In this document: piece after piece, positions 28,926-61,167 of the stretch
Position numbering within the stretch: position 1 is the stretch's first letter
Layout of the letters: the number at the start of each line of letters is the position of its first letter
Source of the DNA: Naegleria gruberi
Lineage: Eukaryota
Assembly: GCA_000004985.1 (NCBI GenBank)
Contig: GG738852.1
Direction: 5' to 3' (one strand)
DNA: 64,000 bases
Made by a program: the position numbers and the translations under genes
Notes under the pieces: generated by a model
The model's input: the letters and a program-made list of their open reading frames with translations, nothing else
What the model was told of the DNA's origin: nothing
Databases searched by the model: none

Positions 28926-31900
28926 TTATTGGTTATGTGGTGTTTGTTTCTCCAAATGGTCAAGAATGGCTTTGGCTGATGGTCTTGATTGATAATCTTT
29001 GGCCAACATGGAAATTGTTAAATCAATCAAGTCTTGAGAGTATTTTCCAGCGTTTGTTAATTTTTCTTTTAGGAATTCTTTAACAGTTTCTGTTTCTTTC
29101 ATCATGTAGAGTTGACTGATTGAGGTATCTGTATCTTTACTCATAATTTGGTATATAGTCACACCTAAACTGTATATATCAGTTGTTGAATTGTATTTTC
29201 CACCGACTGACATTTCAGGAGACATGAAAAGAGGTGTACCACAGTAAGAAACATTTACAGATCCTTGATTTTGACGAGCTAAACCAAAGTCAGCAACAAT
29301 GATGTGGACATCATTTTCATCGATTGATTTGATAAAAATGTTATTTGGTTTGATATCTCTGTGAATTAATGACATGCTTGAGTGAATGTAATCCAAAGCT
29401 TGACATGATTGATCCAAAATCTTTCTAACTATTATTTCTGAACAGTATCCCTCACACTTGATAAGATTGGTTAAATCTCCCTTTTCATAATAATCCATAT
29501 CAATACACAATAATTGATCATTGTCAACAAAGAATTCATTGACTTTGAGAATGTAAGGGTGATTGATATTCATCAATTGAGCCCCTTCTTTCATAATTGA
29601 ATTCAAATCTTCAAAGGATGTGAATTTCATAACTTTGAGCGCCTTTTCATGGTTGTTTCTACTGTCTGTTGCTCTAAAAACTGATCCAAATCCGCCTTGA
29701 CCAATCTTTGACATGTTTTTATATCTTTGTGAAATTGGATCAGACGAGGTGGATGTATTTGAACCTGCAGAATTGTTGTGGAGTGGAGCAAATGACATAC
29801 TGTTGTTTGATGGGAAATCCAAGGAAGCTGATGTTTGCAATTCAATATAAAAACTATTGTTAGGGAAGTTGGCAGTGTTTTGAGAACTTTGTAACTGTTC
29901 TTTTTGGTGTAATCTTTGTGATTCTTGATCTAATTGTTCCTTCTTTCTCTTTGCCTTGATTCTCAATAAGACAACTATTATTACAATCACAACAATAATA
30001 ATTATCAATAGGAGAATGCCTAGAGAGAGGCCAACACCTAGTCCTATACCAAGAGATTGATCGTCTGTTGTGATTCTCTTTGATACTGTTGGTACTGTCG
30101 GTGTTGATGAAGATGTAGCTTGGCTATCAATTACACCAAAAGAAGTAAGGTGAGTCGTATAACAGTTAATATTGAAATATAAAGTATTAGACTCATTCTT
30201 GGTTAAAACAAAGTTAGTAGTTAATCCATCATAGGCCCACTTATTATTGGTTGTATCATAATATGTACAGGTAATGTTACTAGTAGAATTGGCCTTATAC
30301 ACCAAGTTATTGAAATTGATTACAATCTTATTGTTAAGCTTGTTAACTTTAACTAAAGCACCACTCAATTGAACAGAAATATCAATCAGAGGACTAATCA
30401 GGTCAGAAGATACGTATGAAGAGTAGCTAATATCATAAGAAAGAGTATTGTCGAAACCAAGAGCAGATAATTGACTTGAAAAATCAGATGGGAATACTAC
30501 ATTGGTTCCAATCATGGAAACAGCCTTTCCATCCAATTGGTTTAGCAACAATCCTGTTTGCATGTTTGTTTCTCCTTGAGGCAAATCTGTGTGAATAATA
30601 GAGTTGCCAGTAGTATTAGAACTTTGAGAAATTAACAACTTATTCAAGTTGGCCATATTATTGACGAATGGAGCAGGGGAAGAAACGGTGCTCATAATAT
30701 TGAACAAATCTACAATCTCATTGTAATGTTCATTGTCAATAATGAAAGGAAGAACTGAAGGGGAGTAAATATTTGAGGATGCACTAATACTCGAAAAGAT
30801 GTAAGTCATCCAAGATGAAAGACTTGAACTTTGAGTGGAAACAGTGCTTGGTGATAGCGTATTCAATAATACATAGATTGTTCTCAAGGGTGGAACGACC
30901 AAGGCAATAATCTTCTCATCGACGTTATAACCTGTGTTCTTCATTTGATACAGAACTGAACTCATATCAACCAATAATACTACTATTTGATTGGAGGTTG
31001 TTGAATCAAGTAAAGAAGGCAATAGGGCTATTGGAGTGTCTTGAATAAATAAGGACAACAAGGATGAGATATAATTTGCTGTATAAATAGAAATTTGCTT
31101 TTGAGATTTCAACAGTTGATATTGAGTATTGAGATAGTTATATCTGGAAGTGAATGAATTATCAGCAGCAAGACCAGAGGGCAATTTTACAACAATGTTG
31201 TACTTAGCAATTGCTAAAGAACCACTTGTTGTTACAAGCTTGACAATTACATTTAAATTTCCACCATTAACAAATGGAAGTGGTGTTACAGTTACTGATT
31301 TTGGAGTGTTTGAAAGAATTCCAACTCTTGAAGTACCATTATTAACTTGCATAATGAAACCAGATATCTTCTCCTTATTATTCACACACGAAATGACAAA
31401 TGAAGTTTCATAGGCAACATTTGAATTCAAAGGATCATATAATTGGCAACTGAATCTTGGCATCAAATCAACAGTTGTGATCACATTTGCAGATGATTGA
31501 CCTTGCCCATTTGTTACCTTCAATTGAATCTTGTAGTTCTCTCCCTGAATCAATCTAGAACTATCTATCAACAAGTTACTTTGAATGTTGGTTGAAAATG
31601 CAGTATTCCTTGCCGATTGTTGTATAACAGCTGAAACACTATTCTCACCATTGAAAAGTTTGATTGTTCCTTGAATCAATTCCCATTTCAATTCAGAAAT
31701 AGTTGATGCAGAGGTTATAGTGGCCTGAATTAACAAACTCTTTCCGTAAGGATAAACGTCTGGAATGGTATTTAGTTTAATGGCGGGAACATTCTGAGGT
31801 ACATTTACAACACTGATTGTTCCGCTCAGAGTCTGACTAGCTATACCAGAAACCGAAGCAGTTAAACTGATAGTGTAATCTCCTACAGGTAAATTACCAG

Positions 31901-32981
31901 CACCAATTGTCAATGTGTTTGTTGTTCCACTGCAAATGCTTGCAGAAATTTGCTGCTTGGTCTGCTTATCAAAACATGACCAGGAGTATTGAAGTGGAGT
32001 AGTAGAAGGTAAATTATTTAAATATGGATCAAAAACAAAAGTTCCAATTACAATACTGCTTGAAATTGAATAAGTTCTCTCAATATTTGTAAGAAGCAAA
32101 CCGAGTTGATCAAATACAGAGTAAGAAACAGGTACTTTTAAGGAGTATTGAGATGCTTCCACAATGCTAGTGGTGAGGGATCCAGTATATTGGGAGGCAA
32201 AATTATTGGTAAATCTGAATATCTGCTTGCCATAGAGTTGTGTTGACGTGTATGCTAAACTTCCTTCAAATACATTTTGTAAAGTTGTGCCTTGTGTTGG
32301 TACATTAAATTCAATGACACATGTTTGACCAGCACATGTATAACCTCCTGATTGTAAACCAGATACTAGCTCAAAGTTTTGATGAGTTGATACTGTATCA
32401 ATGGAATATTTCTGAGAGGTAGTATAGGTGTTATATGAATTAGAACTGGTTAATGAGACGTTGAGTACCTTTGAATTTCCTTCCATGGAGGAAATAGAAT
32501 TTAGGTAATTGGTTGGAATGATGACAACAGGATTGTTTGTGTTATTTAGAAATAGAGACTGAATTTGTGAAGGACAATTATTGCAATTCCAAACTTGTGA
32601 AATGGACTTGAAACCATAGAATAGATTACTAGTACTTGATCTTACTATGAGTGGCTGATTGAGTGTTAGTGGTGACAGGACACTATTAAGGGAACTTCCA
32701 GATGCTGTCGATAGAATAGAAATTGCACCCATTGCATTCACTTGTAACACCACATTACTTGGTATTAGATTCAATGTTGTTCCGTGCGTTATAGAATGAT
32801 TGAAACCAAGATAAATTCTCAAGCCTTGAGAAGTGAAATCACAACTAACCATGGAAGAATCTCCAAAGGATAAAATATCATTTTGTGAGAAGAAATCTTG
32901 ACAATATTTGGTACTAGATGGTATGTATGCCAGTATTGGAGGATGGTATGGCCAGAATTGTGAGATCACAAGATGTTTCAA
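28926..32981 (-). CDS. Giant receptor-type protein: large ectodomain with GPS/GAIN autoproteolysis motif, single TM, C-terminal Ser/Thr kinase (5' end unresolved)
   Basis: Continuous 1351-codon ORF. GPS motif CTYYDTTNNKWAYDG...NINCYTTHLTSFGVI at ~30290..30135. TM LGIGLGVGLSLGILLLIIIIVVIVIIVVLL at ~30044..29958. Complete kinase domain (GQGGFGSVF, HRDIKPNNIF, DFG, SPE) at ~29714..28929. No signal peptide or ATG lies near the 5' end, and the first Met is ~residue 44. The true 5' exons may be the NHL/EGF gene upstream. Confidence 0.7.
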   Translation of the reverse strand: MKHLVISQFWPYHPPILAYIPSSTKYCQDFFSQNDILSFGDSSMVSCDFTSQGLRIYLGFNHSITHGTTLNLIPSNVVLQVNAMGAISILSTASGSSLNSVLSPLTLNQPLIVRSSTSNLFYGFKSISQVWNCNNCPSQIQSLFLNNTNNPVVIIPTNYLNSISSMEGNSKVLNVSLTSSNSYNTYTTSQKYSIDTVSTHQNFELVSGLQSGGYTCAGQTCVIEFNVPTQGTTLQNVFEGSLAYTSTQLYGKQIFRFTNNFASQYTGSLTTSIVEASQYSLKVPVSYSVFDQLGLLLTNIERTYSISSSIVIGTFVFDPYLNNLPSTTPLQYSWSCFDKQTKQQISASICSGTTNTLTIGAGNLPVGDYTISLTASVSGIASQTLSGTISVVNVPQNVPAIKLNTIPDVYPYGKSLLIQATITSASTISELKWELIQGTIKLFNGENSVSAVIQQSARNTAFSTNIQSNLLIDSSRLIQGENYKIQLKVTNGQGQSSANVITTVDLMPRFSCQLYDPLNSNVAYETSFVISCVNNKEKISGFIMQVNNGTSRVGILSNTPKSVTVTPLPFVNGGNLNVIVKLVTTSGSLAIAKYNIVVKLPSGLAADNSFTSRYNYLNTQYQLLKSQKQISIYTANYISSLLSLFIQDTPIALLPSLLDSTTSNQIVVLLVDMSSVLYQMKNTGYNVDEKIIALVVPPLRTIYVLLNTLSPSTVSTQSSSLSSWMTYIFSSISASSNIYSPSVLPFIIDNEHYNEIVDLFNIMSTVSSPAPFVNNMANLNKLLISQSSNTTGNSIIHTDLPQGETNMQTGLLLNQLDGKAVSMIGTNVVFPSDFSSQLSALGFDNTLSYDISYSSYVSSDLISPLIDISVQLSGALVKVNKLNNKIVINFNNLVYKANSTSNITCTYYDTTNNKWAYDGLTTNFVLTKNESNTLYFNINCYTTHLTSFGVIDSQATSSSTPTVPTVSKRITTDDQSLGIGLGVGLSLGILLLIIIIVVIVIIVVLLRIKAKRKKEQLDQESQRLHQKEQLQSSQNTANFPNNSFYIELQTSASLDFPSNNSMSFAPLHNNSAGSNTSTSSDPISQRYKNMSKIGQGGFGSVFRATDSRNNHEKALKVMKFTSFEDLNSIMKEGAQLMNINHPYILKVNEFFVDNDQLLCIDMDYYEKGDLTNLIKCEGYCSEIIVRKILDQSCQALDYIHSSMSLIHRDIKPNNIFIKSIDENDVHIIVADFGLARQNQGSVNVSYCGTPLFMSPEMSVGGKYNSTTDIYSLGVTIYQIMSKDTDTSISQLYMMKETETVKEFLKEKLTNAGKYSQDLIDLTISMLAKDYQSRPSAKAILDHLEKQTPHNQ

Positions 32982-33225
32982 TTATTCCAGTAATGAATCT
33001 GCTGTTTGTTCAGGAAGGGGAAAGTGTTCGAATTATAATTTATGTTCCTGCAATACAGGATATACTGGTCCAAATTGCGATATTGCTATTTGTTATGGAA
33101 AATTGCAAAATGACACCACCGTTTGTTCCTCTTTTGGTGATTGTATTTCCTATAACAACTGCCAATGCAAACTTGGATATAGAGGAAACCAATGTCAATT
33201 TCTGCAAATGGCAGATATCAGGTGA
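32934..33225 (+). other. Inverted EGF-repeat coding segment (plus strand) at junction of NHL/EGF gene and GPS-kinase ORF
   Basis: The plus-strand frame encodes GGWYGQNCEITRC..CSGRGKCSNYNLCSCNTGYTGPNCDIAICYGKLQNDTTVCSSFGDCISYNNCQCKLGYRGNQCQF. These are 2.5 tenascin-type EGF repeats, paralogous to those encoded on the minus strand at 33230–33800. It is bounded by ccag| (32933) and CAG|GTGAGA (33225/6), with an in-frame TGA at 33223–33225. Confidence 0.4.
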
Positions 33226-36200
33226 GATACATAACCCATTTGAGCTACAAATATTACTGTTGTTTGAGGCTACATCATTACAGATAGTATATTGGCAATT
33301 ACTTCCAACATATCCTAAATTACATGAACATAAATTTGGACCTACACAAGTTCCATTACCACAACCGAGCCCGAATAATGCATTTCCCACTGTGTTTTTA
33401 ACACCTGCACACAAATATGATTGACACTCTGAGTCAAAATATCCTGCATTACAAGTACAATTATTAGAACTTAAACAGGCTCCTTTTCCAGAGCAAACGT
33501 TGGAAGATGCTGATGATTTTCCAAAGCATGCTGTAATTTGACATTCAGTTCCAGTATACCCATTCGAGCATGAGCATGTGTTGGGGAGAGAGCAGTTTCC
33601 CCTACCTGAACACACATTTGAATCATTAGAATATTTACCATAGCAGATGGCAAGTTGACAATTAAGCCCAGAAAATCCATTGAAACAGGTACAATTATTT
33701 GGAGAGTTACACAATCCATGGCCACTGCAAGTGGTAAGCTCATTAGAAACTCCAAAACAGGAGGCAATACATTGAGTGAAATTCCCATTAAGCCCATAAC
33801 CACTCGGACAGTAAGGAGCCAATCTTCTTATTCTGTTGTTCCCTTTATCGCTGATTAGTATTTCTCCACTATTGGCAATAAAAGTTGTTTGATATAAATA
33901 GTTGAATAAGGCACTTGTAGAGTTGCCTATGTCACCATATAATCCATTAATTGAATCATCTCCTCCAACAGCATTAATATTTCCATCAGGACCAATAACC
34001 CGAATCGAATGTTCATTAGTATAGTAAATAAAATCTCCATTCTTAGAAACAGCTACACTAGTCGTGTGCATACAGGCACCAATAGCTGGAACTCCAATAG
34101 CAAATTCATCACAGGAGCTAGTTGACCCACCAACAGTACTAATAATTCCAGTGTCTGCTGAAACTTTTCTTATTCTAAAATTTTCAGATATAAAAATATC
34201 ACCCAAACTACTAATTGCCAATGAGGAAGTGTATTGTAATTGAGCAGATGTGGCCAGAACATTGTTTCCATAAGTTCCACTTACTCCAGTTCCTGCAACC
34301 GGGTACACAGTTCCGCTCAGTGTTATTTTGTAAAGTCTTGGATTGGCAGATGTAAGAACAAGAATTTCACCAGTTATTGGTGATAGAGCAATACATTGAA
34401 CATCCAATGGAGCATTGATTGCTAGTGTTCCATCAGGGACAATGTTTTTGTCTCCATTTCCAGCTGTTGTTAAATGTGAGTTCACCAAAGCAAACAATTC
34501 CACTTACCAATTGTAGTTATTATTCCATTCGTTGAAACCTTGCGAACTCGGGAATTCATAGAATCTGCAATATAGACCTCACCTGAGCCACTGACTGCCA
34601 CACAACGAGGAGAGTTTAATTGGGCATTAATTGCCAAACCCCCATCTCCACTAAATCCACTTGTGCCATTGCCCGCAAATGTTACTATAGTATTATTAGG
34701 ATATAAAATTCGTATTCTGTCATTGAAGGTGTCTGATAACATTATTAAGCTTGATAATTTTTACAATTTAAAACTTACCAGCAATATATATTTCCCCAGT
34801 ATTAGCAGCTACTGCATGTTGTGGTTGTGCTAATTGAGCATTTATTCCCAATCCACGATCTCCAGAAAATGAGCCACCATGACCTGCAATAGTTGTAATA
34901 ATTCCTGAGCTATAAGAAACAAGTCTCACTCTGTTATTGTATTGATCTATTTAAGAATACTGTGTTAATTAAAGAGTAACAAAAGAATACGTACCTACAA
35001 TATATAAATCTCCAGAGGTATAATTGGCTGTGAGGGAAAATGGTTTAATTTGTACATTCTTTGCTAGCCCACCATTTCCAAGATCACCAATTACTGGAGA
35101 AACAGGACATATTCCATTTCCTGTTATAGTTGAAATAATTCCATTCGAATCTATTTTCCTTACAACACATTCACCATCAGAAGAAAAGAAAATATCACCC
35201 TTAGAAGTGGTGGTAATTGAAAATGGATATGATATCAATGCATTGATGGCCAACCCTCCATCTCCTGAGTTCATTATTAATTTTCTAATATTAAAAACGA
35301 AACAAACCTGAATAGCCAGCAGTGCCTGATCCTGCTATTGTAATAATTGTAGAATTGGATTTAAAAATTCTTCTAATTCTATGAGTTTCATAGTCAGCAA
35401 TAATAAAGTCACCATTTGATGCTATAGCAAAGGAGCGAAAACGACTAAGATAACTTGAAGTTGCAATAACGTTATCTGAATTGTATCCACAGAATCCATA
35501 AACTCCAGCTTTACAAAATTAATTCATTGTCCTTAATAACAATACTTACCAATGGTTGAAATAATTCCATTAGCGCCTATTTTTCTAAGTAAACAATTAA
35601 AAGAATCAGCAAAGTAAACAGTTCCATCATTTGCAACATTAATACCAAAAGGAAATCTCAAGTTGGAATTAATTGCCAATTGACCATCTTTTTGTTTTAA
35701 AATCAAAAAGAAAACTCAATACTTACCAGCACTGTACCCTTCGGTTCCATAAACCCCAGCAACAGTAACAATAGTTCCATTAGTGAATATCTTTCTAATT
35801 CTATGTTTTTCAGCTTCTGTGAGATACAAATCCCCATTAGCACTGAATGATATTCCCATCGGATTCATTAACATGGCATTAATAGCCAATGCTCCATCGC
35901 CATAATTTGAACTGGCAAAACCAGTTCCTGCATACGTTGTAACAATTCCATTCGCAATCTTTCGAATGAATGCACCATATGAAAGAGGATTGAAAAAAGA
36001 TCCGAATAAAGTATTTTCAGCAATGTACACATGTTGAGTAATTGGATGTATAGCAACTGCACTTGGTGAGTAAAGAGAGACACGTAAAGGATCATATCCC
36101 TCTCCCTTTACATTCAATCCACCAGCAATGGTAGAAACATTATAGCTTGGATAGAATGGTGTTGTTACTCCTGCAACAGCATGTGGTTGGTTACAAACAA

Positions 36201-38569: not shown

Positions 38570-39721
38570 ATGGGACAATATCAATCAACATTAATCACCT
38601 CTCATAACAAGTTTGCTTCTTCCTTGTTTCAATCAATTACCACCAAAAACAAGCAAACTAATATAATCTTCTCACCAATTTCCATTTATTTAACTGTATT
38701 GATGGCCACCGGTGGTTCTAATGGCCAAACATTGTCAGAGTTTGGCAAGGGTATTTTCCTTGATCAATCACCATCCACTGTTGAAGTGTTTAGACTCATT
38801 ATCGAACCATTTGCTTCCAATTTCTTTGATAATCTCAACACCTCAATCATCAATGTTGCTAACAATGTCTTTGTTGAGAGAAATGCCATTTTGAATGAAA
38901 ATTACAAGGAACATGTTCAAAAGGCCTTCCAAGTCAATGTTGAACAATGTGATTTTGCAGGAAATGCCAATGGTGAAGCTGTGAATATTAATCAATGGGT
39001 TTCTTCACATACCAATCAAAAGATTAATAATTTAATTCCACCTAATCACCTTAATTCTCTCACACGATTAGTTCTCGTCAATGCAGTTCATTTCCTTGGA
39101 AAATGGAAGGAAGTTTTCAACATTTCTAATAGTTATACGACCACATTCCATGGCGCTGGTGGTGACAGCACTTGTACTATCATGCAAAAAGAAAGAACCA
39201 AAGAACAATATGGTGCTGAAGGTCTCTATCATTGGGTCACCATGTCATTCAATGATGCCAAGTATAAGCTGACCATTGTTGCTGTCAAAGATAACTCACA
39301 TCAAACAACTTTCGATGATTGGTTCTCTAAGAAATTGAGTCAAGGATTCGAAAGTGGCTTCCCTACCAGAGAAACTCAAATGCACTCGTGTGGCTTCCCA
39401 AGATTTGAACTCGAACAAGGAATGGAATTGAATGAAATTTTACAAGCTTCTCCATTCAACATTCAAAAAGCATTTACAACTAATGCTGATTTCTCAAATT
39501 TGATCGTCAATGATCAAATTCATATCAATGCTGTCATTCATAAGGCCTATATTAAGGTGAATGAAAACGGTGCTGAGGCAGGAGCTGCTCTTAGTATGGA
39601 TTGTGCTACTTTTAGTATTGTGAAAAATCCAGAATTTCTGGTCACCTCACCATTTGCTTTCATCCTTACTGATGATTCTACCAAGTCAATTCTATTTGCT
39701 GGTAAGGTTAACACATTGTAA
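38570..39721 (+). CDS. Serpin (serine protease inhibitor)
   Basis: ATG start. 383 aa. Serpin core, with hinge GAEAGAALSMD and reactive-centre loop ...CATFSIVKNPEF, followed by the C-terminal serpin signature FILTDDSTKSILFAGKV. Confidence 0.85.
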   Translation: MGQYQSTLITSHNKFASSLFQSITTKNKQTNIIFSPISIYLTVLMATGGSNGQTLSEFGKGIFLDQSPSTVEVFRLIIEPFASNFFDNLNTSIINVANNVFVERNAILNENYKEHVQKAFQVNVEQCDFAGNANGEAVNINQWVSSHTNQKINNLIPPNHLNSLTRLVLVNAVHFLGKWKEVFNISNSYTTTFHGAGGDSTCTIMQKERTKEQYGAEGLYHWVTMSFNDAKYKLTIVAVKDNSHQTTFDDWFSKKLSQGFESGFPTRETQMHSCGFPRFELEQGMELNEILQASPFNIQKAFTTNADFSNLIVNDQIHINAVIHKAYIKVNENGAEAGAALSMDCATFSIVKNPEFLVTSPFAFILTDDSTKSILFAGKVNTL

Positions 39722-39959: not shown

Positions 39960-40214
39960 ATGGCCTACTATGATGAGATTGAAATTGAGGACATGATCTT
40001 CAATGAGGAGGAAGGTTCCTACTATTATCCTTGTCCTTGTGGTGATATCTTTTCAATCACATTGCAAGAATTGTATAATGGTGATGAAATTGCTCACTGT
40101 CCAAGTTGTTCACTTGTTATTAGAGTAATTTATGATCCCGAGGATTTTAAACAAGAAGAGGAAGGTGCTGCCGATGATACTGAAGGTGCTGCGGAGGAAA
40201 TTGAAACACAATAA
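39960..40214 (+). CDS. DPH3: Diphthamide biosynthesis protein 3 (DPH3/Kti11, CSL zinc finger)
   Basis: YYYPCPCGDIFSITLQELYNGDEIAHCPSCSLVIRVIYD matches the DPH-type CSL domain. Acidic C-terminus. Confidence 0.8.
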   Translation: MAYYDEIEIEDMIFNEEEGSYYYPCPCGDIFSITLQELYNGDEIAHCPSCSLVIRVIYDPEDFKQEEEGAADDTEGAAEEIETQ

Positions 40215-40427: not shown

Positions 40428-41137
40428 TTAGAGGAGAGTGAGCATATTTTCAGCAGTTGTCTTTTCCAATTGACCTGGAGAATCTTCAACGAACAATTCC
40501 TTAACTTTACCATTTTCAATAAGCATACTGAAACGCTTAGATCTCTTTCCCAAACCAGCGGCAGTCAAATCGACTTCAAGACCAACTTGTCTAGTGAATT
40601 CACCCAATGGATCAGCAATGAATTCAATTTCTTCATTACCAGAAGCAACCTTTTCCTTCCAGGCCTTCATGACAAAACTATCATTGACACTGAGGCAGAT
40701 AATCTTGGAAATACCCTTTTCCTTCAATGCTTTAGAATTGTTAAGGTAACTTGGAACGTGCTTGTTTGAACAGACTGGAGTGAAAGCACCCTATTATTAT
40801 ATAATTGTTGTGTGATGTAATAATAATGGATATATAATTAATTCCGATCATTCCGATCAATTAATTCCAAAAATATTAAAATTATTATAAAATTGTTATC
40901 AAACAAGAAGAATACATTAGTAAATTCTAACGAAATGATACTTACTGGGACACCAAAGACAATAACCTTTCCAGAAGTGAACAAATCATCAGTAGTAACA
41001 GCTTCATTGGTAACCTTGAAGAGTTTAACTGGAGTGGATGGCTTGACTTCAACATTGGTGTGGGCAGATCTGAATGAAACAACAGTTGATCCAATCAATG
41101 ATTGTTTTTTGAAGAGAGGAATGGTCTTACGGAGCAT
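40428..41137 (-). CDS. Peroxiredoxin-5-type (atypical 2-Cys) peroxiredoxin with mitochondrial-type presequence; 2 exons
   Basis: join(41137..40946,40790..40428). Exon 1 is MLRKTIPLFKK...VIVFGVP|GTAAGT. A 155-nt AT-rich intron ends in ..aatag. Exon 2 is GAFTPVCSNKHVPSYL...FVEDSPGQLEKTTAENMLTLL (PRDX5 family). Confidence 0.8.
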
Positions 41138-41355
41138 TTTGTTCTGATTTTTTTGAAACTTTAATATTAATAAATATTCAATCATGCAAATGTTTGGGAT
41201 TCTCAAGCCAATATTCATCTTGTCTTTTAGTTAAGAATCTTCAAAAATACGCACTCCTTAAACTCTCATTCATTGGTTAGATTGGTGAAGAGAATATTAA
41301 ATTGATTTTCAAATGAGTTAAATTTTATTAAAAACTACTAAGGATGTGAATCAAT

Positions 41356-44300
41356 TTACTTCTTAATGGTCACTTCACTGGCTGCACATGGAGAGAATTT
41401 AATGTAAACTTCACCCATGGCTGGAGTGGCAAGAGCAGAATCTTTCTTACTGCCAATTAATTTACCTTCCTTGGCTTTCCAATATTCAGCTTCTCTGAGG
41501 ATAAATCTTCTCTCACGTCCAATATTGTGTAAACGAAGGAGGTCTCCAACTTTGACTCTGAATTCACCCATATATTGATCTCTTGTCTTTTGATAGTCCA
41601 TACATTTGACAATTAAATAATCTTCATAATCAAAGATGTGAATAGTATGTGGTTCATGCCAATCAGGATTGACAGTTCTATTGACAATCTTGGTTCTAAC
41701 CTTTTGTTTCTTAGAACCCTTTCTGGTATTCTTTTCATTCAATTTAACTCTGAGGTAAGGATCTGCTGAGCCATGGTCAACCGGTAATAAATTTCTACCT
41801 CTGGAAACTTCCATTTTGAGACCTTCAGGTTTTGGTGCAATATATTTTGGAATGAGATTTACAATATTCTTTTCACCACATCCAACAATCTTCCATCCAC
41901 CCTTGTATAATTCAATGACACACATTGTTACAATAATGTCATTATCACTTTCATCAGCACTATCGTAACCATCCTCATTGACTTCATACTTTTCTTCCTT
42001 CTTAGTATACTTGTCAAGGAAAACACTTCCTGCAGTTTGAACACGAATAATTTCTTGACCTGTTCTCATGCCAACAACACGGCAGTAAACTTGTGAATTT
42101 TCATTGAGGACACTTCTTGATTTGACTTCAATATTTGCAACAATGTATTTGACATTGGAGCTTTCAACAAGATCACGAACACGAACGTCGAATTGTTCTT
42201 CATCATCTTGAGTATAGATGGTTAAAAAGTTAATTGGACGATGCTTGAGTTTGGCATCCATATCACTATATCCATCAAAGACTTTACCAATATATCTTCC
42301 AAAGTGATCATAGAGTTCAACTTCTGCATTGAGAATATGCTTCTGACCACCATTACCAACTACACCGAAACCAAGAACCAAATCTCTCTTATCCTTGACA
42401 AAGTCCTTTGAAACTGAAGTTGTTTCCTTTGCTGGAACTCTGAAAATATCATTAGATGGTTCACTGATATCAAATTGGCACTTTTGCAAGATGGATCTCA
42501 AATATTTACGAGCTGGTGATTGGAATTCTATGATTTCATCCAAAACTTCAATGAACCATTCGTCTCTTTGACCTCCACGATAAGCAATGACAGCCAAATT
42601 GGCATGTTGATGACAATTGAATACTTCCAAAGCATCTGTTGAACCATCAACATTGTAAACATTTCTCATTTTGGCAATACACATGTCAACCTTTTCGTCA
42701 ACATTCCACAATCTGAATGCATTGATTTGCTTTTCAGGAATGAGTGAATAATCCAAACCTTCCTCTTCTTCATTTCCAGAAATATCCTTGAATTTCAACA
42801 AGAAGCACATAAAGTATGGAGCATGAGGTTCCTTGCTATAGTTCAAATCAACACGGTGGAATGAGGACAAACTTTGCAACATTTGATCTTGTCTTGGAAG
42901 TTCATGTTCTTCATCCTCATCTTCTTCTTTGAGAACAAATGAACCAGTCATTTGAATATCACTGTTAGAGTCATTCTTTTTTGAAAGGGCAAGTTTTCTC
43001 TTTCTCAAATCATTTTCTTCATTGACCATGATTGGCTTAGCTCCTGTTAAGAGTTTACCATATTGTGAGAATTCTAACACTTGGAGAGCATCTAAGTTCT
43101 TTACAGTTGAAAAATCGAATCCAACAGTTCTGACTTCTTGCTTTGAGATACGGAAACAACGTGGTTTTTCTTTCTTTTCTTCTGACTTTTCTTCCACAAC
43201 AATCAAATCCAAGTCATCACCAACAGAAACAACTTCTTCAACATTTTCCTTCTTTTCTTGAGGCTTTTCAGCATCACTGGCCTTGTCTTGTTCTGCTAAC
43301 AACTTTTCTGCCTCTCTTTCACGTTCTTCTTCCTCAATTTCTGCCTGTGTTGTCAATTCAATACAAGGAGGTAAATCAATTGTGGTAACATAGGATTGAA
43401 TTTGAGCTTTCAACTTTGGATCGATAAGTGGATGGACACCATATGAATATTCGCCAATATTGCTAATCTTCCATTTGGTAAGTCCAATAAATGATCCAGA
43501 AGATACCATCGAGTTGATTTGATTCTTCTTTGAGGTAAAGTTAATTCCTGAAGATTCATTTGGATTTCTCAAACAAGTCAACTTGCAAGCAATGAAACTT
43601 TGGTGAGCCTTATCAGCAGTGTTCAATTGATATCTGTACAAGTCACCAACTGATGGAGTGGAAATCTTAACAAATGGATCTTTGAGTTCTTGGAAGCCAG
43701 AATCTTGAGCATTGGAAGAAGCAGTCACAACAACCATGATGGAGTGGACAGATTTTGGAAGACGACTCAAATCAATTTCTGCACACAAATCATTTTCCTT
43801 TCCAGACTCGAAGAGATTGTCCTTGTAGAATACAGCTGCAGGAGTTGGTTTGATGGCATGTGAAGAGGTTGACAAGTTATTACTTGAAGCTGTGTTAGAT
43901 GTGGCATTTCTAGGAGAATTGTTTCCAACACTTGGCTTATCGTTAGCAATTGATGAGCTTGAATTTCCAGCAGTAGAAGCTGTATTGGTATGATTTTCAA
44001 TTCTAGCAAGTGAGAGCTTTGGTGTGTATTGATCAATGTGACCAAGACGAGTTCCATATTTACCAAAGAATAGTACTGTAGTTGTTAAATAATATCTAGA
44101 GTATGATCTTCCTGAAAGGGCTTGCCATCCAATGAAAATCTTGACACGATCCTCATTGAAAGTGTAGCTCTTTTGCATGGAAATTTGTGATGCAATGGAT
44201 GGCTTTTCACTTTCCTTCTTTTCATTTTCATCGTAAGGATTTACATCCTTCTTGGCATTGATTTCTTGAAGGAGAGCTTCATCTTTCAAGGTTGGAATGA

Positions 44301-45654
44301 ATGGTGGTTTTTCAGCACTCACTTGAACAGATGACAAATATTTGTGAACCTCTTCAACAATCAATTGATCGATCAAAATCGATCCAGTCAATTCAGAATA
44401 GACACGAACAATATATTCTTCATCATCATCATGATCATCATCTTTGAGTAAATTAGCAATGGCCATATTTTCCTTATTCAAATTCTTCTTTTCCTCCTGA
44501 CGAAGGTGAATAATATAAGTTAAACGATTCTTCATGGAAATGAAAATATTCTCTGGCAATACATCCTTACACATGGCATACATGAAAGCATCAATAAATC
44601 TCTCATTGTGTCCAATATCTACTTGTTTTGAGACAATTTGCCAATAATAACTTGAATTTACACTTGCAGATGTTTCATCTTCTTGGGTAGTTTCATCATT
44701 TTCTTGTTCTGCTGGTTTCAAGTGACTGGAATTTCCAGGACTTTGTGAAATTGATGAATTATCCATAGCTGATCCTTCATCATCGTCATCATCCTTATTG
44801 GTATTCTCTTTTTCCTTTCCAGGTACCACAGATGTTGAAATAACTTCAGCATCTCCTCCTCTCAATTGAATAATTGCAAAAACTTGACCACTGACATCTC
44901 TTTGATTATCAAGTTTTGAAGAAATGGCAAGTTTCAATTCTTGATCATTAACATATTGATACAAATTACAACTAGCAAATGACAGTTCCGATAAAACTGT
45001 TCCAGCATAACAAGAAGCAAGGAAAACAATACAACGAACTTCTTGATCAACTTGTGAAAGATCCAATTCAATATATTCATTGCTATCAGAAATAGCTTTT
45101 TCAAGAGGAATTGTGTCATCTTTCAATTGTTCCTTCCTATTGTTGTTTTGATTAATATAGTTCAATTAGTTTTGTTATTATTTTAGAATAATAATATTGT
45201 AATTTGTTATATGAACATGTTAATATCTAAATAAACATAAGAAGAATACATACATTCTATTAGAATCTAGATTTTTAAATCCATTTCTATCATCACCACT
45301 ATGTTTTAATCCCTTCACTTGATCCAAGTTATTGAAAAAACAAACATCATGAATACCACCATATTTGTTTAAAAGAATGGCAACTAAATCAACATCGTGT
45401 GTTAGTGTAGATTTTGATTTCCATTGTAAAGTTGCTATAAATCGTGTATTAGAAATATTGGATGTGGCTAATGATGGACTTGTTGATGATTCCGTATTTT
45501 GTTGTGGATTGATTGGTGGTAAATTAAAGACAAAATTATGACTGTTTTTAAAGGGAAAAGTTGAGAATGTTGTAGGATTTGTTGTGCTGTGGGTGATGGA
45601 AAGAGGTGAATTTGGAGGTGAGAGAGCAGCAGCAAGTTTGGTTTTATTTAACAT
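41356..45654 (-). CDS. Large multi-TerD-like-domain protein with C-terminal C2 domain; 2 exons
   Basis: join(45654..45254,45136..41356). Exon 1 has the TerD signature THDVDLVAILLNKYGGIHDVCFFNNLDQVKGLKHSGDDRNGFKNLD, then AT|GTATGT. A 117-nt intron ends in ..caacaatag, and G completes an ATG codon in frame. Further TerD-like modules (..VFAIIQLRGGDAEV.., ..HANLAVIAYRGGQRDEWFIEV.., ..YCRVVGMRTGQEIIRV..). C-terminal C2 domain (LLPVDHGSADPYLRVKL...NPDWHEPHTIHIF). Confidence 0.6.
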
Positions 45655-45846: not shown

Positions 45847-46067
45847 TCATTTCTTATTATTCGTTGAGCAAAAATCAAAAGAAGAGAGAACTGCTTTTGC
45901 TATCTATTTTCATAACTTGGAAAACTTTCAAAAAATTAAAAGAAAAAATTTAATGCTTCTTGTGTTGGATAACAGTGTTGCAGCGGTTCGATAGTAAGAA
46001 GAAGACTTGAACACAATTCTCTCTCTTGTTATCACTTACAACATTTAATTCTTTTTCTCTCTACAAA

Positions 46068-49000
46068 ATGCCTCCTAATCAAAGTAGTAGCAGCTCTAGT
46101 AACAGTCCCTATATGATACCTCCTCATTTAGCTACGCCCTCTCATCATCATGAAAGACATTCATCAGAGTATTCGGAAGAGTCAACCATTTTGACTACAC
46201 GAGGAGATAATCATTTTAGAAATAATTCTCAACCTGCATCATTTACTACAAATAATTTGGCATCTAGATCAAAATCTAATCCACCTGTAGGAACCAAAAT
46301 ATATGGACAAGGAATGCCAATACCTTTTGGAGTCCTTGATAGTTATACACCACCTCCTTTGAAATCTAGTAATAGTACTTCAAATGTAAATACAAAATCA
46401 CCATCCATCCCTCCTTCATCTCCATCAACAATAGGAAAAAACAAAAAAGAAGAAATACAAATTAATAATACATCGGAATGGTTTACATTGACAACACAGA
46501 ATCATGATTCTTTATTTCCTCTGGAAGGTCATCAAATTTTCTACTGGGAACAATGTTTGGAGGATGAAGATGATTTGACGAGTAGTGTTGAATCGACATC
46601 AATTTTCAATAGGTCACTCAACATGATTGTATTATTTGGAGGAACAGGTCCTATTCGTGGTAATACTAATCAAATATATTGTATGGTACAAAAACATTCG
46701 AGTATCAATTCAAAGCCAACTACTAATATTTCAAATTCTCAAAGTTGTTCACACCAATGGATTCCAGTCCCAAGTCATTATATTCCAAATTATTTTCCAC
46801 CTTCTCTCACTAGTGCCAGTAGTAATGATATTGAGAAATTAGAAAGAAAATCCTCCAAATCTAATATTTTGAGTAATTCTAACCAAGGTGCATCATCTCC
46901 AAGACGTTCATCATTCGAATTATCTTCAATTGCAGAGGATGGATCAACTGAAATACCACTCTACAAATCAAGATATGACCACTCATTAGTATTATGTGGA
47001 AATAATAAGGCTTACCTGTTTGGTGGAAGAAATGGCATGTTCACCAAGACTCCACTTCAAGACTTTATTCTCTACTCTCTTGATATGGATATTTCCAATC
47101 AATTCACATGGGAGATGGCCCACATCCCACCAAAGAATGATAGAGACCCATCAATATTGAAACAATCTCAAAGAGGGTTGGACGATTTATACAACAGAGA
47201 GTCACCAATTCCAAGATATGGACATTCATGTTGTGCTGTAAATCAAAAACAATCGGTACTCCAACGATCTAATAGTACTAACACAGGAAGCTCTCAAGCT
47301 ATCATAGAATTGAATTCTGAATCTGATACACTCTCTGATTTATCTATTGGAGGTTTAAATAACAATTTTGAAAGCAATTCTTCAAGTGCCAGTACTGGGT
47401 CAACCAGATTTAACACTGATGGAGGTGTTGTTTTAGATTGTGCAATGCTTCTCTTTGGAGGAGTAGCATTCACAGATTATTCTGGCTCTAAAAAATGTAA
47501 AGAAACTAACGATTTTTGGATGTTTAATTGTAAGGAACGAAAATGGCTTTCTTATCCAAGCATTATTCAGAGATACTTTAAAAATTCTTCTAGCATTTTA
47601 CAATTCAAAACTGATGACAAGTATATGCAAGAAATTTCTCTCTCCTCTTCAGCAAGTGGAACAAGCTCTTCCAATAGCGAGAGTAGAAAACAAACCAAAA
47701 AACCAGCAAACAATAATATTATTTCAATCCACAGCTCATTCGTACCAGAGGCCAGGTATGGCCATCAGATGTGTGTTGTATCCAACTCGTTGATTTTCGT
47801 AATTGGTGGAGCGACACTAAATAAGGACGCCATGTACAAAGATGTTTGGGTTCTTTCGCTTAGTACTTTCGAATGGAGAAAGGTAAATTTGCTTCACAAT
47901 AAGAATAATGAACAGTTTATCAATAAGATACCTATTCGTTACGCTTCTCACGTAGTTGTTGGTAGAAGAATATTACTCTATGGAGGACAGTTATCATACA
48001 AAACTGGTGATTATCTGACAGAGCTTCTTTGTTTTGATACTGAAACCTATAGATTTTCAATAATTGAAAACAGTATTTCTCCAAAATTTGATACTGGCCT
48101 TGTAAAGGCAACTATGATTCTTTACGGAATTGATCTTTTAATTATTGGAGGTAAAAGAGGTGTTAGCTCATATAGATATAACGATAGTGTTCAGGCATTC
48201 TCTTTCAAATTGCATTCCATATCCAAAACTAATCAAAAATTTATTAGAGAAAACACTAAAATGAAAAAATCTAATCAAATTCTGACTCCTAACGAAATTA
48301 CATTTGAGATACCTACATTTGGAGATGAAGATGATGAGTTTGATATTGCTAATTCTGTTAAAATTGATTTAATATCTCAAATTCTATTAAGTGAAATGTC
48401 AAGCAGTGATTTCTCAAGAAAAGAGGCTCTTAAATACCTTTCAGAAGTGAAGCAAATAGATATTGTAAAACAATTATTTAGAAACAATTCCATTCACAAA
48501 GCTCTATCGATAATTATGCAATCGGGATCCAAGTCTGATATCAGACAGACTGCCAAAGTTTTAATCAGATACTTTAAAGATACTGACCAAGGTACACTAC
48601 CATTTATCATTGCTCGACAAGTACTAAAATTCATTGAAAGCTATTTGACCTTGATTAACACCCTTATCAAACTTCGAGAACCAATCAGCCAAACATTACA
48701 TTTAGATTATCTTAATTTATTCCACTTAATGTGTCAAAATTTTGAATATTATGAATCTCTATCAAAGGAGCTCATTTCAGTGTTTCAACAATGTTTCAAG
48801 TTGAGTGATCCATTATCAAAGGCATCCCTAGATATTTTACAACTAGCCGTTTCATCTGTTGAGTTCTTATCACTTAATGCAATGCATTTCGCATCAAAGT
48901 GTGATAAGGAAACAAGTATAATATTTAGAGATTTTATAACTCTTTGCAACGAGGCTAAATCCAAGACAGCTAAAAACTTGGAAGATAATCCAATAGAAAT

Positions 49001-49142
49001 GCAAGGATCTATCCTTAAGCTTGATGAATTGGTAAACAAACTTCGCCAATCCCTCTTCAGACTTTCATCAAGAAGCAAACCAATCAAAAAATACCTTGGA
49101 AAATTACTGAAACGAAGTGAAGAAGATGATGATGATATGTAA
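46068..49142 (+). CDS. Kelch-repeat (beta-propeller) protein with helical C-terminal domain
   Basis: Track ORF starts at TTG 46026; ATG 46068 (MPPNQSSS). Six kelch-like blades (..RYDHSLVL..LFGGRNG; ..RYGHSCCAV; ..LLFGGVAF..DFWMF..KWL; ..RYGHQMCVV..IFVIGG..VWVLSL..EWRKV; ..ASHVVVGRRILLYGG; ..ATMILYGIDLLIIGG). S/N-rich N-terminus. Confidence 0.6.
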   Translation: MPPNQSSSSSSNSPYMIPPHLATPSHHHERHSSEYSEESTILTTRGDNHFRNNSQPASFTTNNLASRSKSNPPVGTKIYGQGMPIPFGVLDSYTPPPLKSSNSTSNVNTKSPSIPPSSPSTIGKNKKEEIQINNTSEWFTLTTQNHDSLFPLEGHQIFYWEQCLEDEDDLTSSVESTSIFNRSLNMIVLFGGTGPIRGNTNQIYCMVQKHSSINSKPTTNISNSQSCSHQWIPVPSHYIPNYFPPSLTSASSNDIEKLERKSSKSNILSNSNQGASSPRRSSFELSSIAEDGSTEIPLYKSRYDHSLVLCGNNKAYLFGGRNGMFTKTPLQDFILYSLDMDISNQFTWEMAHIPPKNDRDPSILKQSQRGLDDLYNRESPIPRYGHSCCAVNQKQSVLQRSNSTNTGSSQAIIELNSESDTLSDLSIGGLNNNFESNSSSASTGSTRFNTDGGVVLDCAMLLFGGVAFTDYSGSKKCKETNDFWMFNCKERKWLSYPSIIQRYFKNSSSILQFKTDDKYMQEISLSSSASGTSSSNSESRKQTKKPANNNIISIHSSFVPEARYGHQMCVVSNSLIFVIGGATLNKDAMYKDVWVLSLSTFEWRKVNLLHNKNNEQFINKIPIRYASHVVVGRRILLYGGQLSYKTGDYLTELLCFDTETYRFSIIENSISPKFDTGLVKATMILYGIDLLIIGGKRGVSSYRYNDSVQAFSFKLHSISKTNQKFIRENTKMKKSNQILTPNEITFEIPTFGDEDDEFDIANSVKIDLISQILLSEMSSSDFSRKEALKYLSEVKQIDIVKQLFRNNSIHKALSIIMQSGSKSDIRQTAKVLIRYFKDTDQGTLPFIIARQVLKFIESYLTLINTLIKLREPISQTLHLDYLNLFHLMCQNFEYYESLSKELISVFQQCFKLSDPLSKASLDILQLAVSSVEFLSLNAMHFASKCDKETSIIFRDFITLCNEAKSKTAKNLEDNPIEMQGSILKLDELVNKLRQSLFRLSSRSKPIKKYLGKLLKRSEEDDDDM

Positions 49143-60100: not shown

Positions 60101-61167
60101 GAAACATCGTCAATAGTGTCCACTTTGAAACAATTTCCTTTCATGATACTGTCATAATCTTGAGCTTTAGTTAAGAAGAGTTCCTTCTTTTTTGCTTCAT
60201 CCATACCAGCAAGCATTTGATAGAAAATGTGATATGATCTTTCATTAGGTCCCTGCTTCATTAAACGGGATTTTTCCAACAAGTCTATTTCCATGTTAAT
60301 TAATTGAATCCAAACCAAACTTACAGTTTTCTGTGACGGCACCCTTAATGATACCATGTGAGTCAAATTGAAGTTTAATAAATTTACCAAATCTAGAAGA
60401 GTTATCATTGTTCTTTGTTTTAGCGTTACCAAAAGCTTCTAGAATTGGAGAAGCTTGTTGAATTTTAGAACTCATCCCATCCGCCACACTCTTAACATTA
60501 GGATCGTTTGTCATTGTTGATGAAAGTTTACATAAATATTTGATAACAGATTTACAGGCCTCAGTTTTACCTATTAAATTTGATATTAAAAGTGATCAAA
60601 ATACTTAATGAAAAATTAAAACTTACCAGCACCACTTTCACCTGAAATTAGCAAGGTTTGATTTCCTTCCCCTCCTTTCATTGCTCTGTAGGCTCGGTCG
60701 GCAATTTGCCAACAATGTGGATTTAAGCCCTTCTTTCTCTCGACGTAATTAATCATGAATTCATCCTTACAGTATGGGATGGTCCACTTGAACGGATTGA
60801 GGGAGATGATAAGACCTCCAATAAATGTATAAATTTTGTCTTCCTTGAAACGGTTTTGAACACAATACAGCAATGATGATTCGTTAAGTTCAATCAAATC
60901 CAGCAAGTCATCATTCACTGCAGTTAATATATCTTCTTTGTACATGTTGAGATCACTTTCGGTAACCCAGGCATCTTCAACACCTTGCGATGAGCAAAGG
61001 TAAGGCGTTGGAATTTTGTTTGTTTGCTTCTTTTCATCAATATCCTTAATATTACCTATAACCCATGAGTGAACAGGATGATTAAATAAAACCTTAGCAC
61101 CCTTTTCCCAACTTGTGGATTTTGCAGCAGCAGGTTTTGCTACTAATGTTGAAGCCCTAGGTGGCAT
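57151..61167 (-). CDS. Unconventional myosin heavy chain with long E/R/K-rich single-alpha-helix/coiled-coil region; 3 exons
   Basis: join(61167..60627,60570..60325,60284..57151). Exon 1 ends at the P-loop GESGAG|GTAAGT. A 56-nt intron follows. Exon 2 (G)[12 protein letters not shown]...[15 protein letters not shown] (switch I). Donor T|GTAAGT, then a 40-nt intron. Exon 3 [23 protein letters not shown]...switch II DIFGFE...IQ motif...~450 aa of E/K/R repeats...S/P-rich tail. Confidence 0.85.

Follow-up and report, generated by a model that had tools for sequence, protein, structure and literature searches.

A two-exon Naegleria gruberi gene encoding TerD-type modules joined to a C-terminal C2 domain

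The question raised by this locus is whether a single Naegleria gruberi gene joins several TerD domains to a C2 domain and, if so, what such a protein might do. The TerD domain is widespread in bacterial stress and defence but has no settled biochemical role even there, and to our knowledge its eukaryotic uses have barely been explored. We analyzed a 64,000-nucleotide stretch of contig GG738852.1 (here called the window), for which a sequence-only reading had proposed a 1393-residue protein with a TerD signature in its first exon, at least three further degenerate TerD-like modules, a C-terminal C2 domain, and a role as a Ca2+-responsive scaffold.

The spliced product of the gene has 1393 residues and is encoded by two exons (Table 1). 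With the intron removed, the sequence forms a single open frame of 1393 codons that is identical to the public model XP_002680896.1. Exon 1 codes for a variable N-terminus rich in Ser, Thr, Pro, and Asn, together with the first half of TerD module A, the intron splits this module in its Ca2+-loop region, and the remainder, from the second half of module A through the C2 domain, is one unbroken 3.8-kb exon. The locus is a real, conserved N. gruberi gene. A gene-fusion or mis-splicing artefact was ruled out by the unbroken exon and by six other sequences in which the full architecture is collinear. The intron, the host-typical GC content, and the lack of adjoining Ter partner genes led us to reject a recent horizontal transfer of a ter operon. 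The surrounding genes are peroxiredoxin-like, DPH3, serpin, Kelch, kinase, and myosin genes, and no partners of the terZABCDE type (TerB, TerC, VWA, or phosphoribosyltransferase genes) were found among the neighbours scanned.

TABLE 1. Features of the gene and its product, in positions of the window (protein features from N- to C-terminus)
Feature	Residues	Positions	Strand	Remarks
Gene	1-1393	41356..45654	-	Two exons
Exon 1		45254..45654	-	ATG at 45654; codons 1-133 plus 2 nt; from ORF list, sequence, and splice reconstruction
Intron		45137..45253	-	117 nt, GTATGT...AATAG, phase 2; from sequence and splice reconstruction
Exon 2		41356..45136	-	Third base of codon 134 to TAA stop at 41356-41358
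TerD module A	75-312	44602..45432	-	Spans intron; canonical TerD; Pfam TerD 40.1 bits
Conserved segment H	313-440	44218..44601	-	51% identity to Willaertia orthologue
TerD module B	460-700	43438..44160	-	Pfam TerD 32.2 bits
Acidic linker	727-792	43162..43359	-	Glu/Lys-rich, by composition; poorly conserved (31-46% identity to orthologues)
Module D	793-1025	42463..43161	-	TerD-fold beta-sandwich from predicted structure only
TerD module E	1050-1224	41866..42390	-	Degenerate; Pfam TerD 11.3 bits (E 0.24)
C2 domain	1238-1354	41476..41826	-	PKC-alpha/synaptotagmin type; Pfam C2 61-65 bits
C-terminal tail	1355-1393	41359..41475	-	Conserved KK at end

The product is predicted to be soluble, lacking both a signal peptide and transmembrane helices. 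From N- to C-terminus it consists of module A, segment H, module B, an acidic linker, module D, module E, and the C2 domain. Segment H had no Pfam match and no similarity to the TerD or C2 profiles, and its sequence is apparently helical. Against Pfam TerD (PF02342; curated cut-off, 25.3 bits), the whole protein scored 69.6 bits (E 3e-19). Taken one by one, modules A and B exceeded this cut-off and the C2 domain exceeded its own (22 bits), while module E fell below and module D had no match. We also compared the modules by hhalign with a bacterial TerD profile built from four annotated, plasmid-borne ter loci; a search seeded with an E. coli TerD sequence returned only TerDs at least 86% identical and was unusable for a diverse profile.

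Module A matched the bacterial profile with a probability of 97.5% (E 5e-12). It carries two insertions, one of 22 residues in the Ca2+ loop and an acidic/Ser-rich one (residues 235 to 297) ahead of the last strand. [quoted passage not shown] Ligand mapping placed D87, V88, D89, D121, D122, and E154 of module A at the Ca1 site, so that all six positions are kept (with N79 replaced by Asp); the Ca2 site is kept in part. N153, E154, and H118 are invariant across all orthologues, including P0006, a 27%-identical sequence from one further eukaryote (SRA run SRR22388312). Module A is the sole TerD module with the Ca2+ ligands defined for Klebsiella TerD, and it may bind Ca2+.

Module B matched the same profile at 92 to 94% (E 2-6e-7). 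Its loop holds a 60-residue Ser/Asn/Thr-rich insertion (residues 505 to 566), and the insert-free copy in P0006 matches positions 23 to 173 of the TerD profile at 32.5 bits. The DxD Ca2+ motif is absent from module B, which has Y483, L484, and T485 instead. Module E is more degenerate. Removal of its acidic insertion (residues 1177 to 1200) raised the Pfam score to 17.4 bits (E 0.003), still below the cut-off, and hhalign gave 92 to 93% (E 3-5e-7) over 114 to 146 collinear columns, compared with E 0.21 for the reversed control. This module has kept its acidic DDEEQ motif and, near its C-terminal end, the GGWKIVGCGE strand, and has lost the DxD and GDNxTG motifs.

Module D is the least certain of the four. 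In hhalign its E values against the TerD profile (0.1 to 0.4) equalled those of reversed-sequence controls, and a search of its predicted structure against the PDB with Foldseek yielded no significant match, to TerD or otherwise. The same medium-confidence AlphaFold model (one model, from seven sequences) superposes on 2QZ7 and 2KXT, and at this medium confidence we treat module D as a TerD-type module; the TerD Ca2+ ligand positions cannot be aligned in it. Searches of modules D and E by phmmer against all PDB sequences gave chance matches only. A separate AlphaFold2 model of modules D and E with the C2 domain (624 residues, six sequences) reached a pLDDT of 54 and was discarded as a basis; Foldseek returned only weak C2-type matches for it, to otoferlin and E-Syt2 via its C2. 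That module D, or less probably module E, is an unrelated beta-rich look-alike, leaving only two or three TerD modules, would fit the Pfam and Foldseek results for module D, its control-level hhalign scores, and the lack of significant similarity among the modules. We consider such a lower count unlikely, and four TerD-type modules followed by a C-terminal C2 domain are supported.

Module-module comparison by hhalign, with shallow orthologue alignments of the four modules, gave no significant pair (E at least 0.05), and internal repeats could not be demonstrated by self-comparison. No DNA tandem repeats were found either, and the duplications of the modules are therefore ancient. Modules B, D, and E are no less conserved than module A. 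Between Naegleria species, module D and the C2 domain are the most conserved parts (76 to 77%), and in comparison with Willaertia, module D (62% identity) is second only to the C2 domain (69%).

The nearest solved relatives of the C2 domain are the C2 of PKC-alpha (E 4e-11) and those of synaptotagmins 7 and 1 (profile E 3e-18 to 7e-17, with Syt7 at 3e-18). HMMER and orthologue alignments identified D1254, D1259, D1314, Q1316, and D1320 as the Ca2+-loop residues, corresponding to the PKC-alpha ligands D187, D193, D246, D248, and D254 of loops 1 and 3. Thus, the N. gruberi domain has Asp at four of the five ligand positions and shares D187, D193, D246, and D254 with these C2 domains, as well as a Lys-rich cluster and an NPxW(N/H)E motif. 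Unlike PKC-alpha, it has Gln at the D248 position, which is Glu in other Naegleria and Willaertia, and its loop 3 is shorter by one residue. Each of the five heterolobosean orthologues retains four or five acidic loop ligands. The C2 of P0006 has neither loop-1 aspartate nor any loop-3 ligand pattern. The Lys/Arg-rich beta3-beta4 cluster comprises R1263, K1265, and KKQKVRTK; the PIP2-binding K197, K199, K209, and K211 of PKC-alpha align with R1263, K1265, and two Lys within KKQKVRTK. All orthologues conserve or strengthen this cluster, which reads KSQTKKKKKQ in P0006.

These results bear out the multi-TerD protein with a C-terminal C2 domain that was proposed from the sequence, including the TerD signature of exon 1 and the three further modules (B by Pfam, E by profile-profile comparison, and D from predicted structure only). 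The first module does not stand alone as TerD, and the C2 domain is well above its threshold. The proposed Ca2+-responsive scaffold is a plausible reading with partial backing: the Ca1 ligands of module A and the four C2 aspartates agree with it, but modules B and E lack DxD and module D cannot be aligned at these positions. Because only module A keeps the TerD Ca2+ ligands, the protein cannot be read as an array of Ca2+ sensors; the N. gruberi sequence is predicted to hold at most one TerD Ca2+ site and one C2 with four of five ligand aspartates.

The public records of this protein (EFC48152.1 / XP_002680896.1 / D2V4S5) carry the name "serine/threonine kinase"; for the orthologues, the only names given are "C2 domain-containing" and "hypothetical." No protein-kinase domain was matched by Pfam scans up to E 10 of the whole protein and six segments, and NCBIfam gave nothing; a true kinase within the same window scored 177 bits in the same type of scan. 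Among solved structures, the best relatives are C2 domains of PKC-alpha and PKC-gamma in isolated form, and the kinase name was probably transferred from PKC through this resemblance. That the protein is a kinase is contradicted by these results, and we give it next to no credence.

An exhaustive hmmsearch with a profile of residues 135 to 1235 against 1.84 billion representatives (E <= 0.001) detected no homologues outside the Heterolobosea and the one further eukaryote, and none in animals; kinetoplastid and dictyostelid proteins were likewise not retrieved. The layout of four TerD modules and a C2 domain was detected only in Naegleria, Willaertia, and the eukaryote represented by P0006. The human pathogen Naegleria fowleri has an orthologue, FDP41_005727. 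The earlier remark that such a protein had not been described holds for the searchable literature, in which we found no study or description of it, but public databases already list both the protein and its orthologues, tagged with Pfam TerD and C2.

Compared with known systems, the protein shares its beta-sandwich domain with the bacterial TerD family (K. pneumoniae TerD, 2KXT; Streptomyces SCO6318, 2QZ7; TerD/TerE/TerZ/TerA), through modules A and B by Pfam, E by profile, D by superposition of its model, and the Ca1 ligands of A. Bacterial TerDs are mostly single-domain proteins of ~190 residues in ter operons with TerB and TerC; the Naegleria protein differs in its four fused modules, long low-complexity loop insertions, attached C2, loss of the Ca2+ motif in three modules, and absence of Ter partner genes nearby. 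Unlike PKC-alpha and the synaptotagmins, it has no kinase, C1, or transmembrane part. Extended synaptotagmins, ferlins, and MCTPs are likewise strings of Ca2+-binding-type beta-sandwiches that end at or act on membranes, although this is a functional analogy only: they repeat C2 and have membrane anchors, whereas the Naegleria protein repeats TerD, with one C2 and no anchor. Among eukaryotes, Dictyostelium CABP1 is a cytosolic TerD-family cAMP-binding protein that also carries a TerD-type domain, as the sequence-only reading had pointed out, with a single TerD region and no known C2. Kinetoplastids and Heterolobosea both fall within the supergroup Discoba. FAZ28 and FAZ30 of Trypanosoma brucei and Leishmania belong to the flagellum attachment zone and carry a Pfam TerD domain, and they reside in a membrane-cytoskeleton junction that also has C2 proteins (PMC10953051). 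There, TerD and C2 lie on separate proteins, whereas in the Naegleria protein they are fused; orthology is unsupported, with no kinetoplastid protein among the profile matches.

We favor a reading, at a probability of about 0.5, in which the protein is a peripheral-membrane scaffold that is regulated by Ca2+ and sits at the cell cortex. The C2 domain, which resembles those of PKC-alpha and the synaptotagmins, would use its Ca2+ loops and the Lys/Arg-rich face of beta3-beta4 to attach the protein to membranes with acidic phospholipids (PS/PIP2). Module A, with the bacterial Ca1 site kept, may be a second Ca2+-sensitive element, and the degenerate sandwiches B, D, and E, which have lost their Ca2+ ligands yet are conserved, might form a rigid spacer or protein-binding platform. 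Docking, sensing, and platform together would make up the scaffold, with Ca2+ binding, lipid binding, and location all predicted.

The protein may instead be a Ca2+-independent structural adaptor that binds membranes through its polybasic C2, with the four TerD domains as interaction or spacer modules and the acidic residues of module A in a structural role. Ligand loss in three of four TerD modules, the Gln in the N. gruberi C2, the rank of the degenerate modules D and E among the best-conserved regions, and the P0006 C2, which lacks loop aspartates yet has a stronger Lys run, all favor this. Of these, the ligand loss, the Gln, and the P0006 C2 also weigh against the Ca2+-regulated scaffold, together with the 22-residue insertion in the loop of the one ligand-bearing module and the medium-confidence TerD assignment of module D, and because the P0006 C2 has lost its Ca2+ ligands, Ca2+-dependent membrane binding cannot be family-wide. 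Against the adaptor stand the conservation of the Ca1-site residues of module A (DxD, GDDRxG, and NE) across 27%-identical homologues and the acidic loop ligands of the heterolobosean C2 domains; we hold it possible but doubtful. Less probable still is a small-ligand sensor, in which a metabolite resembling a nucleotide or nucleoside, and not Ca2+, would be the ligand of the TerD modules and the C2 would place the sensor on a membrane. Such binding has been proposed for bacterial TerD, and it would accord with the cAMP binding reported for CABP1 and with the very large cyclase repertoire of N. gruberi, although we know of no residues of TerD defined as binding nucleotide-type ligands. The Aravind group (PMC7159879) has placed TerD with domains for which recognition of "specialized nucleotide derivatives" is considered possible. 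Against such a sensor, none of the 10 neighbour gene products scanned belonged to Ter or nucleotide-metabolism families, and no dictyostelid protein came up in the profile search.

If the protein proves to be a plain scaffold, the finding is an ordinary one, a lineage-specific shuffle of known domains. In any case, the "serine/threonine kinase" name of D2V4S5 wants correcting. The narrow range of the protein, with an orthologue in N. fowleri and none in animals, could make it a lineage-specific marker or target. As a long shot, Discoba may have recruited the bacterial TerD fold for cortical membrane-cytoskeleton junctions; the Naegleria protein would then be the counterpart, in an amoeboflagellate, of FAZ28/FAZ30, a Ca2+-switched tether that organises the cortex, or the flagellar apparatus built de novo, as amoebae transform into flagellates, and the three "dead" TerD modules would represent a new class of protein-binding sandwich. 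Here a eukaryote strings four TerD sandwiches onto a classical Ca2+/lipid-binding C2, and with one putative TerD Ca2+ site kept and the "dead" copies highly conserved, the protein would be a case of a prokaryotic Ca2+-binding fold repurposed for eukaryotic membrane biology.

The two ORFs of the TerD-C2 gene, joined through the intron between them, form a spliced reading frame of 4182 nt and 1393 codons, which agrees with the protein length given in the sequence-only reading. An exact-sequence look-up showed that the product is identical to EFC48152.1 / XP_002680896.1 / UniProt D2V4S5, which is named "serine/threonine kinase" in the public record. Four neighboring ORFs likewise match proteins of N. 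gruberi NEG-M exactly, which assigns the window to this heterolobosean amoeboflagellate and not to a dictyostelid. Hydrophobic windows gave no suggestion of a transmembrane helix in the protein, and no signal-peptide-like N-terminus was found.

Pfam profiles for TerD (PF02342; E, 3e-19) and C2 (PF00168; E, 1e-16) matched the whole protein; an NCBIfam scan yielded zero matches. We also ran Pfam on six segments of the protein, for which the TerD cut-off is 25.3 bits. Scores above this cut-off were obtained for aa 61-193 in module A (40.1 bits) and about aa 569-653 in module B (32.2 bits). The region of module E (aa 1020-1235) scored below it (11.3 bits; E, 0.24) and still did so when the acidic loop insert was removed (17.4 bits; E, 0.003; profile positions 83-173). 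No Pfam match was found in aa 760-1030, the region of module D. The C2 domain scored 65 bits at aa 1240-1334.

Because comparison of the modules with one another, using shallow orthologue alignments, gave no signal, we built an independent TerD-family profile from 17 sequences annotated as TerZ, TerA, TerD, TerE, and other TerD-family genes (four plasmid loci, E. coli, Pseudomonas, Bacillus, and Streptomyces) and ran each module's alignment against it with hhalign. Module E matched over 114-146 collinear columns, with elements that include LGFG, DDEEQFDVRV, VYCRVVGMRTGQEIIRV, and GGWKIVGCGE. Since the controls (segment H between modules A and B, C2, and each module's sequence reversed) reached E values of only 0.08-0.5, we count module E as a TerD domain by remote homology, on a par with module B, whose Pfam score exceeds the cut-off. 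For module D, neither Pfam nor hhalign gave a TerD sequence signal. Its structure (aa 785-1025) was predicted from a 7-sequence alignment that included P0006, a distant homologue from an SRA run, and zero TerD sequences. The model (pLDDT, 70.9; pTM, 0.75) suggests that module D most probably has a TerD fold, a grading that we do not raise because this is one model of medium confidence. A joint model of D, E, and C2 was discarded as too poor (pLDDT, 54). The observation made in the sequence-only reading is confirmed, and the multi-TerD plus C2 architecture is right as judged by profiles, remote homology, and the D model; of the further degenerate modules that had been claimed, B is established by Pfam and E by profile-profile comparison, and D is seen in the predicted model only.

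Features of the TerD-C2 gene, its product, and the surrounding window (nucleotide positions unless marked aa)
Feature	Position	Strand	Description	hhalign probability; E	Identity to Willaertia
Exon-1 ORF	45220-45654	minus	144 aa, ATG start
Second ORF	41356-45165	minus	1269 aa, frame differs from 144-aa ORF
Intron joining both ORFs	45253-45137	minus	117 nt, ends GTATGT...AATAG
Module A	aa 75-312			97.5%; 5e-12	43%
Segment H	aa 313-440				51%
Module B	aa 460-700			92-94%; 2-6e-7	53%
Acidic linker	aa 727-792				31%
Module D	aa 793-1006			0.1-0.2%; 0.4-0.65	62%
Module E	aa 1050-1224			92-93%; 3-5e-7	57%
C2	aa 1238-1354				69%
Tandem-repeat gene	8171-9979	plus	mostly imperfect repeats, periods 12-117 nt
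Protein with C-terminal kinase domain	28926-32981	minus	1351 aa
EGF-repeat protein	33040-34503	minus
Serpin	38570-39721	plus	383 aa, no intron, Pfam Serpin 247 bits, identical to N. gruberi D2V4S2
DPH3/KTI11 CSL zinc-finger protein	39960-40214	plus	84 aa, identical to D2V4S3
Peroxiredoxin-5-like Redoxin gene	40428-41218	minus	directly adjoins TerD-C2 gene
Kelch-repeat protein gene	46026-49142	plus	1038 aa, high-coordinate side, divergent from TerD-C2 gene
Myosin gene	57151-60432	minus	motor domain truncated in ORF

A word-indexed homology search of 5.8 billion clusters matched only N. lovaniensis C9374_011244, N. fowleri FDP41_005727 (publicly named "C2 domain-containing protein"), Willaertia magna ABK040_000967, and two ENA sequences, which were 48-66% identical over the full length. 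The N. gruberi protein itself was missing from the search lists because a 144-aa fragment stands for its 90%-identity cluster. This representative of the D2V4S5 cluster is an ENA entry as long as the exon-1 ORF. A profile of aa 135-1235, run exhaustively with hmmsearch against 1.84 billion representatives, recovered five proteins in total, P0006 (SRR22388312) among them; at an E value of 0.001, none came from bacteria, kinetoplastids, dictyostelids, plants, or animals. P0006 is 27% identical, is collinear across TerD, H, TerD, D, E, and C2, has no low-complexity inserts, and lies on a contig of 41% GC. On that contig (L001 1-3966; Logan SRR22388312) the called gene begins inside TerD module A; upstream of it, the frame reads ...ASDLDLSCILLDDD and then meets a GTATGT intron, whose position differs from that of the N. 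gruberi intron. The taxonomic range detected is narrow (Naegleria, Willaertia, the two ENA sequences, and P0006). Per-module identities to Willaertia indicate that the degenerate TerD modules are strongly constrained.

In K. pneumoniae TerD, the Ca1 ligands are residues 40, 41, 42, 78, 79, and 89 and the Ca2 ligands are residues 29, 82, 84, and 88 (PMC8779313, citing Pan et al. 2011); we transferred these positions to the modules via profile alignments. Module A has D87, V88, D89, D121, D122, and E154 at the Ca1 positions and W78, G125, K127, and N153 at the Ca2 positions, and its loop carries a 22-aa insertion. Its DxD, HSGDDRxG, and NE motifs are kept in P0006, the upstream exon fragment of that homologue (ASDLDLSCILL) included. 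In module B, DxD has given way to Y483, L484, and T485, and E89 to L584. Of the acidic motif, module E preserves only EE; its DxD and D78 are gone. Ligand positions in module D could not be mapped through the profile alignment. The predicted Ca2+ site residues are retained in one of the four TerD-type modules.

By sequence, the solved structures nearest to the C2 domain are the C2 domains of PKC-alpha and PKC-gamma (E, 4e-11) and, with the family profile, those of Syt7 and Syt1 (E, 3e-18 to 7e-17). HMMER alignment places PKC-alpha D187, D193, D246, and D254 at D1254, D1259, D1314, and D1320. PKC-alpha D248 corresponds to Q1316 in N. gruberi and to Glu in N. fowleri, N. lovaniensis, Willaertia, and two further sequences. 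The PIP2-binding lysines of PKC-alpha align with R1263, K1265, and Lys residues within KKQKVRTK (HMMER). This is a C2 domain of the PKC/synaptotagmin type, with an almost complete predicted set of Ca2+ ligands and a polybasic, predicted lipid-binding face.

The protein is soluble and strings together four TerD-type beta-sandwiches (D most probably being one), with the conserved, unassigned segment H and the acidic linker between modules and C2 last. C2 would draw the protein onto acidic membranes, a step that Ca2+ probably promotes; TerD-A would contribute a second Ca2+-sensitive element, and modules B, D, and E would act as spacer and interaction platform. We infer a Ca2+-regulated peripheral-membrane scaffold, with a probability of about 0.5. 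The Ca2+-responsive scaffold of the sequence-only reading is plausible in this narrower form, with Ca2+ ligands limited to one TerD module and C2 and not spread over the whole array. A Ca2+-independent adaptor is a distinctly weaker candidate, favored by P0006, whose C2 domain is without the Ca2+ aspartates.

A nucleotide or metabolite sensor, for which Dictyostelium CABP1 is the analogue invoked, seems unlikely. It would follow by analogy from proposals made for bacterial TerD (PMC7159879). That the protein is a kinase, as its database name has it, is hardly credible, since the Pfam scan of the whole protein found no kinase domain; the name was probably carried over from PKC via the C2 domain.

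The neighborhood of the TerD-C2 gene is ordinary eukaryotic, and its GC is typical for the window. No Ter partner genes were found near it among the neighboring products scanned in the window; Ter systems have such operon partners, whereas this locus does not, which places the protein outside any Ter system. On the low-coordinate side are the peroxiredoxin-like and DPH3 genes. The serpin, kinase, and myosin genes lie farther off in the window. The Redoxin gene is seemingly split by an intron, as the ORF at 40428-40727 covers no more than the domain's C-terminal part, and the serpin D2V4S2 is publicly named only "predicted protein." Only ~370 bp separate the start codons of the Kelch and TerD-C2 genes, which may share a bidirectional promoter region. 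Elsewhere, the repeats at 8171-9979 encode Gln/Gly/Pro/Tyr-rich low-complexity sequence and account for a local GC peak (0.42) and for long overlapping ORFs in several frames. The myosin gene probably has additional exons upstream, given its truncated motor domain.

The domains of the protein belong to the known TerD and C2 families. The kinetoplastid proteins FAZ28 and FAZ30 are TerD-domain proteins in a membrane-cytoskeleton junction beside C2 proteins (PMC10953051) and are the only other described TerD-domain proteins found in the supergroup to which Naegleria belongs; hmmsearch with the aa 135-1235 profile detected no homology to them beyond the TerD domain. In the searchable literature we found no description of a TerD-C2 fusion, nothing relevant joining TerD and Naegleria, and no cited accession of this family, in line with the earlier remark of not having seen it described; the 2012 Ter survey (Anantharaman, Iyer, Aravind) may list such architectures. 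The TerD-C2 protein, uncharacterised and lineage-restricted, combines known domains in a new arrangement. Sequence databases already contain it, misnamed, and the way in which the D2V4S5 cluster is represented is a pitfall when the absence of a sequence from databases is judged.
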